A DNA stretch of 26,833 nt from Candidatus Thorarchaeota archaeon (GTDB lineage: Archaea > Asgardarchaeota > Thorarchaeia > Thorarchaeales > Thorarchaeaceae): positions 1 to 26,833 of the forward strand of contig JAFGAR010000165.1 in NCBI GenBank assembly GCA_016933575.1, given 5' to 3'. Below, one piece after another: positions 9,740 to 26,730 of the stretch; position 1 is the first letter of the stretch, and every line of letters begins with the position of its first letter. Under the pieces are notes generated by a model, which saw only the letters and a list, made by a program, of their open reading frames with translations, was not told the origin of the DNA and searched no databases. A program made the translations under genes and the position numbers.

Positions 9740-9803
9740 CTACATCTGTTTCTCTTGGCGGCATGGGGGTTTTCAGGTCCGAATGTTTCTCATGCCTTTT
9801 GAT
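9740..9803 (-). repeat. Gene-end repeat copy A (with small deletions)
   Basis: ctacatctgtttctcttggcggcatgggggttttcaggtccgaa; minus strand reads ...FGPE/PCRQEKQM*. Confidence 0.9.
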
Positions 9804-9951
9804 CTCAATATGTAGGACACTAGATATCGATACCAGTATTGACAAACCTATTGTCTATTGATTTTCTTAGCATTTTCGATCAAATCAAGACTAATCGATG
9901 CTAGGGATTCCTCCTCCTAGTCTATGTCAACGAGCTATTTAGAATTCTGAA

Positions 9952-10146
9952 TTATTCATTGAAATCCTTAGTTCCAACCACTGTAAGCCCGATAGGTTTG
10001 CCATCCTTGTATCTAACAACAATGCCATTTGGAAGCATTTCAGAGTCATCGGCCTCTTGGATTGGCCCAAAACTCACGTACACTACATCATTCTCTGAAT
10101 CATATCTAATGTCCATGTTCTCCAGATCAACTACTATTTGGGCCAT
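9952..10146 (-). CDS. DUF2283-domain protein (putative antitoxin)
   Basis: YDSENDVVYVSF...GIVVRYKDGKPIGLTV pattern; acidic 64-aa protein; overlaps the upstream gene. Confidence 0.8.
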   Translation of the reverse strand: MAQIVVDLENMDIRYDSENDVVYVSFGPIQEADDSEMLPNGIVVRYKDGKPIGLTVVGTKDFNE

Positions 10147-10493
10147 ACAGTACCTCTCCTTTTGAAGGAATCCGGTTTTGATGTGATGAAGAGTGTCTTT
10201 ATCCTACTCCTTTCTACGTAGAAAACCGCTAAAAACTTGTGTGTGCCCGTGATTTTCTTCAAAGCCACGATTTCATTCGTATGCCCTGCTGTAATAAAAT
10301 CTGGGCTTTCAATCGTTGCTTTGATATTAGCATAGAGGTCTGGAAGTTGCAGGACTTCGGGATGTCGCTCTTTGATATGTTTGAGAGTTGCTGAATTTAG
10401 CGTCACTGTGGTTCCAAAGACTGATACACATGTGAGAATAATTCCTTCCTTTAGAACAACTTCCTTGTCCTTTTTTGCCTTCATGATTTTCAT
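10134..10493 (-). CDS. Putative BECR-fold RNase toxin (PBECR-like), partner of the DUF2283 protein
   Basis: HIKERHPE...TIESPD...IKTLFIT pattern; basic 119-aa protein translationally coupled to the DUF2283 gene. Confidence 0.65.
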   Translation of the reverse strand: MKIMKAKKDKEVVLKEGIILTCVSVFGTTVTLNSATLKHIKERHPEVLQLPDLYANIKATIESPDFITAGHTNEIVALKKITGTHKFLAVFYVERSRIKTLFITSKPDSFKRRGTVWPK

Positions 10494-10710
10494 CAGTCCT
10501 TGAACAAGTATCAGAGATAACTTGCAGATTTAGAGTCTTCGACCATCAACACCCCTCTCTCTACATCGATATTTACTCCTACTAGTTTTCTCTTCAGAAT
10601 GTTTCAATCATAATCTCATCAATAGTTACTAAGCTGTCGACATCATATAGCACAGGCGTTTTCGATGAACAAGGGATAGCAGAAGAACCTCTCTCAATTA
10701 TAAAATGAAA

Positions 10711-10788
10711 TTACATCTGTTTCTCTTGGCGATATGGGCGGCATTCAGGTCCGAAGGTCTCTCGATCAATGACGATACTATTACAAAT
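10711..10788 (-). repeat. Gene-end repeat copy B (core 10711-10776)
   Basis: Minus strand reads ICNS-IVIDRETFGPECRPYRQEKQM*. Confidence 0.95.
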
Positions 10789-10990
10789 TCTGATTATCAT
10801 TAACAACACGCCCAATAGAAACTTGGGAGTAAACAGTACACCGCGACAATTCAAGAGAACCATCAGTCTTTGAGATTGTGGAATCCCCTTGTTCATACAT
10901 TGAGAGTTCAATCACAGAGAATCCGAACCAACCTCAGTTCTATAATGTAAAGAGAGTAAATGATGTATTTGGTCGTTTTCTCAGTATCTT

Positions 10991-11114
10991 GAGGAATGGA
11001 AGGACACTTACAAGTATGGGCGGCGAAGTCTTGTGGAAATCGTGTTCAGCATGATGAAGAGAGTTACTCGTCAAGGTGATCCCACACAACATCAGGAGAG
11101 TTGCTAACGGTTGA
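10991..11114 (+). mobile_element. Remnant of the C-terminus of an IS5/IS4-type DDE transposase, internally deleted
   Basis: EEWKDTYKYGRRSLVEIVFSMMKR carries the Y-x2-R-x3-E-x6-K (YREK) signature. A shifted frame continues ELLVKVIPHNIRRVANG*. Confidence 0.75.
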
Positions 11115-11210
11115 CTGACTTAATGCAGCGACACTATAGAATCAATATGAGTCTATTACGATATTTTCAGTGAGTTGTAACCGCAGACATTCACTGCCTT
11201 CGGAAAACAG

Positions 11211-24976: not shown

Positions 24977-25164
24977 GTCATGTGCGCTCTTAATGTACTG
25001 TACGAAATCATAGTTCTTTCCATGAAGATAGGGTGTGAATCATTTTAGTGAAGATCTTCGATAAATACGGATATTCCTTAGATTCTCGTGATGTGCAGAG
25101 AATTATCTTAGGAGGGAAAGAGAGAGAGAAAAGGGAATCTAAGTCACCTCTATGGAAGGTATGC

Positions 25165-25241
25165 TTACATCTGCCTCTCTTGGCGGTATGGGAGGCATTC
25201 GGGGCGAATATTTCTCATCCCATAACGACCTTGTTACAAAT
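25165..25241 (-). repeat. Gene-end repeat copy H (core 25165-25229, 1-nt deletion)
   Basis: Minus strand reads ICNKVVMG*EIF/PECLPYRQERQM*. Confidence 0.93.
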
Positions 25242-25322
25242 ACTGTTGTCTTCTTTCTTCTCCATATTCCTCTAGATAGTTCAGAAAAAACTAATTACTA
25301 ATTAGGCTAGCCAAGAAAGAAA

Positions 25323-25343
25323 GAGAGCGGATTTGCCGCTCTC
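25323..25343. terminator. Perfect 8-bp hairpin with a flanking purine run, terminator-like for the minus strand
   Basis: gagagcgg-atttg-ccgctctc preceded by aagaaagaaa. Confidence 0.4.
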
Positions 25344-25537
25344 ACTTTGTAGCTCATACTGTGGAATGAAATCATAAAGAGAGGTCTGTTTGATGCCAAA
25401 CTTGCAGTCAAGGCTGCATCTGCTGTCAGTGATGAATTGTTCTGTTGGTCTCCGGAAGAACGCTAAAATCGCTTTGTTATGAAATTACGAACCTGCGTGA
25501 ATCGTACTATTCTTATCACTATCAGAAATTCTACCAC

Positions 25538-26527
25538 ATGAGTATAGTGTTGCTTCGTAGGATAGTGGTCAGTATACTATTACTGACAGTTCTTGCAAAT
25601 GCTTCGACCATATCAGGATCAGCATGTACCATATTCACTTGGTCTAATGATGAGATGATATTGGTAGGAAATAATGAGGACTGGCAACACAACAACTTCA
25701 GTATCGTATTCTATCCAGAGGATTCCTTTGGCTATGGACATGTTGCCTTTGTGGGAACAGGCAACTATCTAGATATACGAGCAGGAATGAATACTATAGG
25801 TGTATTCATAGATGCTACATCTGTTCGACCATCCAACGTTTCAATAGATCCTGAGAAATCTTTCCTTCATCGCAATTTCTTCAAATATATTCTCCGGACC
25901 TGCGAGTCTGTCAATGAGACCATAGAGCTATTTCAACAATACAACATCGCAGAGACCTGGGATTGGCAGGTCCTGATCGCTGATAGCTTTGGTGATTCTG
26001 TTGTTATCGTTGCGGGACCTGATGAAACGGTCTGGTTTGTACGAGGAGCAGAATCCTATCAGTTGATCACAAATGGGAACATTGCCTATCCTGAACTTGG
26101 GGAGAGTGACTCCTCTGCACTGCGATACTATCTTGCAAACCAGGCATTGTATGAGATGGGTAACAACATTACCGTCAGTAATGCTCGAGATGCCCTGAAT
26201 GCGGCACACTCTGACTATACTGCCTTTTCAAGTGTCTATGATTTGATACAACGGGATATCTACGTCTATTTCAATCATGACTATTCCAGGGTGATTCAGT
26301 TCAATCTTGACGAGGAACTCACAAAAGGAGCACATGAATTCGAAATTCGTTCTCTCTTTGAAGACATCCCCACCACAAACTCTCCAACTGAAGTAACTAC
26401 TTCTTCAAGCACAACTAATGGATATCTTGATGCTATTTCTATCCTAACAATTGGTGCCTCAATCTCCCTTGTGGTCTGTGTCACAGGGATGGTCATTTTC
26501 TCATTGCAACGAAAGAAGTCGTTGTGA
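25538..26527 (+). CDS. Membrane-anchored Ntn-hydrolase (choloylglycine hydrolase/C45-C59-like)
   Basis: Signal peptide then SA|CTIF (N-terminal nucleophile Cys), GNNED, AGMN and ITN motifs; Thr/Ser linker, TM, RKK. ATG 25538 is preferred over the ORF-track start 25445. Confidence 0.85.
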   Translation: MSIVLLRRIVVSILLLTVLANASTISGSACTIFTWSNDEMILVGNNEDWQHNNFSIVFYPEDSFGYGHVAFVGTGNYLDIRAGMNTIGVFIDATSVRPSNVSIDPEKSFLHRNFFKYILRTCESVNETIELFQQYNIAETWDWQVLIADSFGDSVVIVAGPDETVWFVRGAESYQLITNGNIAYPELGESDSSALRYYLANQALYEMGNNITVSNARDALNAAHSDYTAFSSVYDLIQRDIYVYFNHDYSRVIQFNLDEELTKGAHEFEIRSLFEDIPTTNSPTEVTTSSSTTNGYLDAISILTIGASISLVVCVTGMVIFSLQRKKSL

Positions 26528-26645
26528 TGATTACTACTGGGTTGAGTGTAGGTCCAGTGGATGTCATCTGAAGTTTCCTTTTGGAGAACGACCGCCAGAC
26601 CAGTGTCCAGAATGTGGGAAGAATCTCTATGAATATGAGGGATAA
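26525..26645 (+). pseudogene. Possible zinc-ribbon gene fragment
   Basis: DDYYWVECRSSGCHLKFPFGERPPDQCPECGKNLYEYEG*; no credible start of its own. Confidence 0.35.
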
Positions 26646-26692
26646 GAAAAAGAAGAAGAAGGGAGCATAAGCCCCTTTTATGAAAATAAAGA

Positions 26693-26730
26693 TTACATTT
26701 GCTTCTCTTAGCAGTATGGGAAGCGTTCAG
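26693..26730 (-). repeat. Gene-end repeat copy I (truncated)
   Basis: ttacatttgcttctcttagcagtatgggaagcgttcag reads ERFPYC*EKQM* on the minus strand; hairpin and purine run at 26645-26678. Confidence 0.8.

Follow-up and report, generated by a model that had tools for sequence, protein, structure and literature searches.

The window analysed here is a stretch of 26,833 nucleotides (nt) from a Candidatus Thorarchaeota archaeon, corresponding to the entire contig C155 (JAFGAR010000165.1) of an assembly that comprises 3.47 Mb in 215 contigs and is 85% complete. A repeat search and a profile search identified nine copies of one 85-90-nt unit at 9716-26730, all on the minus strand, and the profile search of the whole assembly found no copy beyond this contig. 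The repeat corresponds to the final 21 codons and the stop of an acyl-CoA dehydrogenase (ACAD) gene, and its copies separate cassettes of one to three accessory genes, ranging from toxin-antitoxin pairs and surface proteins to transporters and hydrolases. The units are shown here to be complete ACAD 3' end modules of mixed lineage origin that bound accessory cassettes in a family-wide array, the window being the distal portion of the variable array that lies directly behind ACAD across the family.

ACAD gene ends as the units of the array

In relatives with a single copy (G039, G046, G037 and G031), the repeat encodes, in frame, the last residues of a 413-residue ACAD that ends in IVMGREI(F/Y)GP..LPYRQEKQM, and the orthologue at locus L051 presents the N-terminal, middle and C-terminal ACAD domains (PF02771, PF02770 and PF00441). 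A covariance model of the unit, built from sequence only, detected it in 56 of 60 family genomes at up to 30 copies per genome, and in many Thorarchaeota contigs the array begins with the gene's own end and continues downstream in the same orientation. The window's assembly yielded no ACAD orthologue, the best tblastn match being a 30% identical paralogue; thus, the gene presumably lies past the contig end at 26833. Many ACAD contigs terminate at a repeat, and because the array breaks assemblies in this way, the accessory genes of Thorarchaeota are likely under-binned, the missing ACAD of this genome being a case in point. At one locus of a single-contig genome (L025, G051:C1:3052000-3071000), the array starts behind a gene for a NosD-like beta-helix protein with no adjoining ACAD body, which was either lost or left behind when the array was relocated.

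Past the stop codon, the unit continues with about 14 nt of spacer and then a hairpin, G-rich in its 5' arm and C-rich in its 3' arm, which is followed by a T-rich tract. Stems of 6 bp or more that begin about 14 nt past the stop are present in 85 of 102 distinct units as against 34% of shuffled sequences, and the mean folding energy is -12.9 kcal/mol in units compared with -6.2 kcal/mol after shuffling. Pairing is kept though the stems vary (GAGAGAGG...CCTCTCTC, GGGAGC...GCTCCC, GGGGGT...GTCCCC), and the hairpins of the window's own copies are weak or partly decayed. With its coding end and terminator-like hairpin, the unit thus constitutes a complete 3' end module. No fold was detected in the coding part, RNAalifold returning 0 pairs over the 96-column unit alignment, and a scan of the window against Rfam gave no match to the unit, a fluoride riboswitch being the only match. 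The unit has a sharp 5' boundary at the first Ile codon, given that the sequence upstream of it is random (about 1.9 bits).

A first-pass annotation of this DNA had reported minus-strand translations that stay in register, and for copies B to H these were reproduced letter for letter, including the stop and 1-nt deletion of H, as was the alternative tail of copy E. Its further claim that many differences between copies are synonymous also holds, the minimum numbers of changes at codon positions 1, 2 and 3 being 12, 13 and 26 among copies B, C, D, E, F, G and H. A codon-aligned Nei-Gojobori comparison of these seven copies gave pS 0.69 and pN 0.19, a ratio of 0.28, and among the five ungapped window copies pN/pS is 0.31 in frame, 1.21 in frame +1 and 0.85 in frame +2. 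The entropies of codon positions 1/2/3 are 0.56/0.52/1.12 for 59 ungapped array copies from many genomes and 0.40/0.18/1.31 for 18 gene ends in use, with corresponding values of 0.59/0.53/1.17 for 72 array units from the fetched loci and 0.36/0.13/1.21 for 14 ends in use at array-bearing loci. The additional non-synonymous change in array copies is consistent with relaxed constraint after displacement, and pN/pS values of 0.15-0.45, with pS near saturation, argue for protein-level selection on both lineages in most pairs. As the repeat is a real ACAD end in relatives and diverged under such selection, the copies were once functional C-termini, as that annotation had proposed.

The copies are also of mixed origin. 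Their mean identity is 72% among themselves and 70% to copies elsewhere, and for each of them some other genome supplies a match that is at least as good, often in the form of a gene end in use there; unit F, for instance, best matches units of G013 (84%, versus 75% inside the window), and the best match of unit G is the end that the ACAD of G001 uses (86%). A maximum-likelihood tree of 102 distinct units, built on 63 columns and of poor resolution, requires 5 label changes for the five ungapped window copies, versus 4.95 for shuffled labels. Across all genomes, 76 changes of genome label are needed, compared with 85.7 +/- 1.5 after shuffling and a minimum of 49; units of G013 and G030 show mild clustering, and the majority of units interleave. 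Since the window copies are scattered over the tree and not grouped by genome, they are neither decayed duplicates of a single allele nor derived by radiation from this genome's own.

Two vestigial units, found with filters off (Table 1), lie to the left of the clear copies, so the array extends past the range first assigned to it. The left flank (window 1-9700) lacks synteny within the genus and the recurrence of its genes elsewhere is patchy, with one found beside a unit, which makes the flank probably an older part of the array and not a chromosomal boundary; together, this patchiness and the two vestiges suggest that the whole contig is an old array. The gene beside a unit is a CPBP gene at 3724-4596, next to a vestigial unit, whose 72% identical homologue adjoins a unit in G020:C79.

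A LAGLIDADG endonuclease behind ACAD in relatives

The first slot behind ACAD was compared across 58 distinct ACAD loci. Its largest family is a protein of 560-900 residues encoded convergently to ACAD, which scores 26.1 and 24.4 bits against PF14528 (curated cut-off 22.5) and presents two LAGLIDADG motifs in its last 300 residues, LLGxxxSD(S/G) and LQGxADGDG, with invariant acidic Asp residues. An AlphaFold model of the protein (pLDDT 88, pTM 0.83) matches I-SceI, I-DmoI, I-Tsp061I and PI-SceI/intein endonucleases in Foldseek at E 1e-5 to 1e-6. Judged by its motifs and by this modelled fold, which corresponds to the alpha-beta-beta-alpha-beta-beta-alpha double domain of such enzymes, the first-slot protein is a putative LAGLIDADG homing endonuclease, the family assignment being settled by the fold search.

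Among the 46 distinct loci with at least 300 nt after the ACAD stop, tblastn placed the endonuclease gene or a C-terminal remnant of it behind ACAD in 15, always on the opposite strand and with 6-240 nt between the ACAD stop and the endonuclease C-terminus; in G051 and G033, remnants additionally lie behind inner units. The family occurs in 34 of 61 family genomes, at up to 6 matches per genome, and most of its copies lie at loci other than ACAD, so the mechanism considered below may act on further genes. Its patchy, multi-copy distribution, with many copies broken by stops, suits a selfish element. A paralogue is present in the window's own genome (G000:C21:15795-17537, locus L260:9838-11550), with no duplicated gene end or array around it. 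Another first-slot protein, of about 205 residues and encoded on the ACAD strand (L043:11655-12263 and L162:1445-2074), shows DEDD-exonuclease-like motifs by eye (DLET..., ...HN...D) and has no Pfam match.

Two relatives display the gene end on both sides of the endonuclease gene. In G035 (L026), units at 8185 and 10289 flank an endonuclease gene at 8352-10172, giving the order ACAD, end 1, endonuclease, end 2, and the two ends share 83% DNA identity and 21 of 21 residues. Similarly, at L149 units at 1907 and 3818 flank a gene at 2019-3707, the ends being 78% identical in DNA and 86% in protein. Across species representatives, the identities of gene body and unit are weakly correlated (r 0.30), and these genomes are too diverged for sharp breakpoints, so that metagenome strain pairs are needed. 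In one such pair, from a single sample series, contigs L143 and L144 are 100% identical across 1087 nt of ACAD. Their divergence sets in 82 nt before the unit and extends through the gene end and past it, affecting roughly a quarter of sites, for the most part synonymously; L143, the diverged allele, bears the endonuclease gene, and L144 has two adjacent units and no endonuclease. Because the swap begins 82 nt upstream of the repeat, 48 codons are replaced, which points to gene conversion over site-specific integration, and the divergence looks like a co-conversion tract, not a fixed-site crossover.

These observations bear on the first-pass proposal that cassettes travel between lineages with their own gene end, each integration swapping the last ~21 residues of the host protein. 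A swap of the host tail is indeed seen, at L143/L144 and in G035, but the one that is resolved (L143/L144) replaced 48 codons rather than about 21. Foreign ends are likewise mixed between lineages, although their recurrent carrier is the LAGLIDADG gene and not the cargo. No integration enzyme occurs in any array fetched. The interpretation is partly supported: the ends are foreign, once functional and swapped, and the agent is likely a homing endonuclease together with recombination, not cassette integration.

Cassettes and cargo of the array

The positions of the units and of the cargo between them are collected in Table 1.

Table 1. Gene-end units, vestigial units and slot cargo of the window, listed from the ACAD-proximal side (positions in nt)
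Feature	Position	Strand	Description
Unit I	26673..26730	-	Partial ACAD gene end, 3' half; nearest the contig end; nhmmer 26.8 bits, profile positions 31-88; in-frame stop
Slot H-I cargo	25445..26527	+	360-residue membrane-anchored Ntn-hydrolase-like protein (AAT/CBAH families); Pfam
Unit H	25143..25230	-	ACAD gene-end copy; 1-nt deletion, in-frame stop
Slot G-H cargo	23500..24861	+	314-residue secreted Trp/Gly-rich protein, 134-residue membrane protein; open reading frames (ORFs)
Unit G	22852..22941	-	ACAD gene-end copy; open frame with Gln in place of stop; partial hairpin downstream
Slot F-G cargo	22144..22781	-	PIN toxin (22144-22560) and VapB antitoxin (22557-22781); Pfam
Unit F	22001..22088	-	ACAD gene-end copy
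Slot E-F cargo	21160..21975	+	CPBP/Rce1-like membrane protease; Pfam
Unit E	21008..21084	-	Internal 13-nt deletion giving a short alternative tail
Slot D-E cargo	18082..20984	+	583-residue SGL/beta-propeller surface protein, 276-residue membrane protein; Pfam
Unit D	17888..17977	-	ACAD gene-end copy
Slot C-D cargo	17299..17759	-	DUF4258 toxin (17299-17535) and DUF2283 (17532-17759); Pfam
Unit C	17212..17296	-	Intact: 21 codons and stop
Slot B-C cargo	11211..16796	-	Leucine-rich repeat (LRR) protein, Na+/H+ exchanger, 843-residue surface protein; Pfam
Unit B	10688..10777	-	Intact frame and stop
Slot A-B cargo	9952..10493	-	PBECR3 nuclease-like toxin (10134-10493) and DUF2283 (9952-10146); Pfam
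Unit A	9716..9798	-	Frameshifted (5-nt and 1-nt deletions); most distal clear copy
Vestigial unit	4585..4660	-	Coding 3' end CAAGAGAAGCAGATATAG at 4648-4614, hairpin to ~4585; found with filters off
Vestigial unit	2798..2820	-	5' half of a unit only; weak match, E 0.1-0.3; found with filters off

Several cargo genes of the window recur beside units in other genera, at 65-85% DNA identity and in different slots and order. A toxin-antitoxin pair 85% identical to that of slot A-B fills the first slot behind ACAD in G001, homologues of the C-D cargo adjoin units in G029, G015, G001 and others, and homologues of the F-G cargo are found in G033, G109 and G056. The SGL gene, which shares its slot in the window, stands alone between two units in G057 and G003, as a single-gene cassette; the secreted protein of slot G-H has a relative in the first slot of L054, and G109:C258 holds three window cassettes in reversed order. 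Recurring cargo keeps its orientation relative to the units wherever the flanking units could be scored, and the units that flank homologous cassettes in different genomes are no more alike than background (about 0.7), many of these values being spoiled by partial units. In other arrays the cargo is highly diverse.

Direct repeats of the ACAD 3' end flank every element, and cargo lies on both strands with the units in a single orientation; many slots hold one or two genes, and some hold three genes over 6.5 kb. Cargo-free slots, with adjacent units 60-150 nt apart, are present at L144:1170-1390, L034:14136-14361, L044:11173-11390, L140:3790-4027 and L168:6301-6537, and could be sites of cargo loss or minimal insertions.

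Three further elements were noted among the cassettes. A full-length fluoride riboswitch (RF01734, 46.4 bits) at 13675-13739 on the minus strand lies in slot B-C, about 120 nt upstream of the Na+/H+ exchanger gene (12341-13558). A repeat of about 210 nt occurs at 9301-9510 on the plus strand and inverted at 13968-14170, in each case just downstream of a surface-protein gene (4845-9263 and 14265-16796); it has at least 8 further copies at 74-93% identity on seven other contigs of this genome and many more in genus relatives, its 105-nt core being best kept, and it could be a miniature inverted-repeat transposable element, a shared 3' element or a small RNA. Besides, an element of about 70 nt at 10987-11059, between unit B and the LRR gene, is 82-86% conserved in six or more genomes from other genera (G034, G045, G054, G107, G029 and G031), with no stable fold on either strand and no match to the unit profile.

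Recombinases were sought in the arrays and in the genomes that carry them. Clustering, with Pfam searches on cluster representatives, found none among about 375 ORFs of some 45 arrays, single-protein Pfam families not all being listed, and the conserved genes upstream of ACAD (DUF763, metallo-beta-lactamase-fold, TPR, HAD hydrolase and methyltransferase) include none either. PF00589 is present in 24 of 61 family genomes and on none of the array contigs that could be checked; it has no match in G001, G013, G035, G051 and G003, and the array-rich G013, G003 and G051 lack tyrosine, serine (PF00239) and IS110 (PF01548) enzymes at the thresholds used, although metagenome-assembled genomes (MAGs) are incomplete and cannot prove absence. 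Units were not found on viral contigs with the single 18-nt pattern used, its 36 matches there being apparently due to chance and one of them having a weak match to the unit profile.

The 37 of 61 family genomes without a PF00589 match include several that are more than 95% complete, and the model matched all 14 control genomes. This is odd if Xer-type recombinases are expected; the cause may be enzymes too divergent for the model, or the incompleteness of the MAGs. HNH_3, considered as a candidate array nuclease, was rejected: it is present in 23 of 61 genomes, yet only one match (G030:C28) lies on a known array contig.

Origin of the array and comparison with known systems

We consider it somewhat probable that the endonuclease drove the build-up of the array by displacing gene ends one after another, and that the spare ends then recombined with each other. 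A free-standing LAGLIDADG gene would move together with its own in-frame, synonymously recoded ACAD end; its product would cut an ACAD allele that lacks it, of which the conversion-like tract of L143/L144 is an indirect sign, and repair would copy the donor's new end and the endonuclease gene into the broken allele. The old end would be shoved downstream, where, no longer translated, it would decay, and repeated rounds with ends of different lineages would build up a row of displaced ends that differ mostly synonymously. As these ends are all mutually homologous, they could act as portable homology arms, and repair or ordinary recombination between them would copy, shuffle and delete the intervening cargo, such that the array would behave like an integron without an integrase. 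Synonymous recoding may confer immunity to cleavage. The wider proposition, that Asgard archaea possess a recombinase-free gene-capture platform in which an endonuclease drives serial displacement, spare ends serve as homology arms that copy cassettes between genera, and recoding gives immunity to the element's own nuclease, is put forward tentatively.

Several observations weigh against endonuclease-driven displacement. The top Foldseek match of the modelled first-slot protein is WhiA, a non-catalytic LAGLIDADG regulator (4e-7), and a sequence-profile search of the PDB with the full-length protein gave PI-PkoII as best match at a non-significant E of 0.16. In the window itself, tblastn detected neither an endonuclease gene nor a remnant of one, and since the window's proximal end and ACAD are unassembled, its place in the scheme rests on relatives. 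Several loci (L051, L028, L159 and L147) show the endonuclease gene behind ACAD and no displaced end beyond it; there the gene may be an old neighbour. At L164/L173 the end is identical and divergence begins only past the terminator, so not every cargo change swaps the end. Endonuclease-linked ends show no significant depletion (p 0.15 and 0.1) of ATCGTC, the motif at the start of the unit that was considered as a target-site signature. Moreover, most cassettes in all arrays are ordinary cargo and not endonuclease remnants, and that recombination between units moves these passengers is something we infer.

Alternatively, the units could be attachment sites, as in integrons or cis-mobilizable elements (CIMEs), at which a recombinase acting in trans, or carried by a virus or plasmid, moves circular cassettes at the ACAD 3' end. 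The sharp 5' boundary common to all displaced units would suit such a system, as would the modularity of cassettes that recur in other genomes in changed order, a cargo of toxin-antitoxin pairs and small accessory genes like that of chromosomal integrons, and the existence of integrase-less archaeal attC clusters (PMC9668308). We nevertheless judge it unlikely, given that no recombinase was seen among the about 375 array ORFs or in the conserved genes upstream of ACAD, that PF00589 never falls on a checkable array contig and that three array-rich genomes lack all three enzyme classes at the thresholds used. Likewise, the coding part has no attC-like fold and no Rfam match, the pattern of conservation in the unit is that of coding sequence, the sole resolved swap breaks 82 nt outside the unit, and the one pattern used found no unit in viral contigs. 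Plain homologous recombination without a dedicated enzyme would instead exchange the island through its ACAD anchor and spread units by unequal crossing-over or homology-facilitated illegitimate recombination, with the endonuclease as a passenger. The breakpoint of L143/L144 inside the ACAD body, the empty adjacent unit pairs of several relatives and the mild clustering of G013 and G030 units speak for it, but it leaves unexplained both the same starting codon of every displaced end in all genera and the standing of the LAGLIDADG gene as the commonest first-slot occupant, in constant position and orientation. As 65-80% identity over 66-90 nt is also low for efficient spontaneous recombination, this explanation seems quite improbable.

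That the units are maintained in place, as 19-residue micro-ORFs starting at a conserved ATG at codon 3 or as cassette-insulating terminators, instead of persisting as former gene ends, would accord with the open frame and stop at codon 22 kept by 47 of 72 ungapped array units, with the near invariance of that ATG and with the well-kept hairpin and T-tract. Conservation, however, reaches two codons before the ATG and matches the ACAD C-terminus residue by residue, the random flank holds no conserved start signals, and many copies are frameshifted or truncated, four of them in the window, which renders such selection very unlikely. Least credible of all is an origin by local duplications of the genome's own gene end followed by neutral decay. 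In its favour, copies A, E, H and I are broken, and array copies carry more non-synonymous variation than ends in use; by our reasoning, though, successive snapshots of one allele with neutral decay would give a pN/pS of at least about 0.5, against the observed 0.28 with pS near saturation, and the copies are as distant from one another (72%) as from those of other genomes (70%) and unclustered on the tree.

A full-text search combining Thorarchaeota, acyl-CoA dehydrogenase and mobile genetic elements found no published description of the array. Its closest known case is the fungal mitochondrial mobile open reading frame (mORF), described at atp6 of Allomyces macrogynus and at atp6, atp9, cox2 and nad3 of a Glomus species, where a LAGLIDADG or GIY-YIG ORF brings in a foreign C-terminus and moves the native one downstream, where it stays untranslated; the Glomus atp6 ends share 63.5% identity in DNA and 91% in protein (PMC3630166). 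As in mORFs, an endonuclease gene lies directly behind the gene end (at 15 of 46 relatives' loci, the window itself being without one), the end is duplicated with the new copy in frame and the old copy beyond the endonuclease (G035, L149), and the ends differ mostly synonymously, here with 78-83% identity in DNA and 86-100% in protein. Unlike in mORFs, the site is a metabolic gene on an archaeal chromosome, the endonuclease gene is convergent and separate instead of being fused in frame, a terminator forms part of the carried end, and cleavage is a prediction; displacement is, besides, serial, with up to about 30 spare ends per genome, and the slots hold diverse accessory genes that recur across genera. 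If the endonuclease reading is true, a gene-end-carrying nuclease, so far known only from fungal mitochondria, can seed a large chromosomal exchange site in archaea, and the synonymous differences are explained, since each end must encode the same tail yet escape cleavage.

The free-standing seg and mob endonucleases of T4-like phages are encoded between genes and perform intronless homing, cutting a neighbouring gene in genomes that lack them (PMC2790892, PMC2988022). Their spread by gene conversion, with co-conversion of flanking markers, is comparable to the L143/L144 tract, whereas phage homing substitutes one sequence for another, with neither a duplicated gene end nor a cassette array left behind. 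A different parallel is found in the rhs/cdi toxin loci, where old gene ends are serially displaced downstream as orphans when a new end arrives by recombination. In those loci it is the coding end that varies, as a toxin domain together with its immunity gene, whereas here the protein end is constant and the variation lies in unrelated cargo.

Integrative elements also accrete in tandem at the 3' ends of genes and tRNAs, with integrase-less derivatives flanked by att repeats, as exemplified by the CIMEs at fda of Streptococcus thermophilus and by the tycheposons of Prochlorococcus. Each of these elements brings a replacement 3' end, the displaced ends accumulate as direct repeats, at least some elements carry an integrase, and the repeats are near-identical cores; in the present arrays, in contrast, no integrase was found and the repeats are 60-80% alike. 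Integrons, in turn, are the textbook prokaryotic route for stockpiling and exchanging small accessory genes, and need an integrase and folded attC sites. Archaeal attC clusters without an integrase have been described (PMC9668308). With integrons, of which many arrays lack an integrase gene, the ACAD array shares a series of repeats in one orientation that separate small accessory cassettes at a fixed locus, in which toxin-antitoxin cargo is common, but its separator is a translatable gene end with a terminator instead of a folded attC, IntI is lacking, cargo stands in both orientations, and the array is anchored behind a housekeeping-type gene, at its 3' end. The array thus represents a second route to a cassette array, one with an integron-like architecture but no integrase, in which working gene ends serve as the separators.

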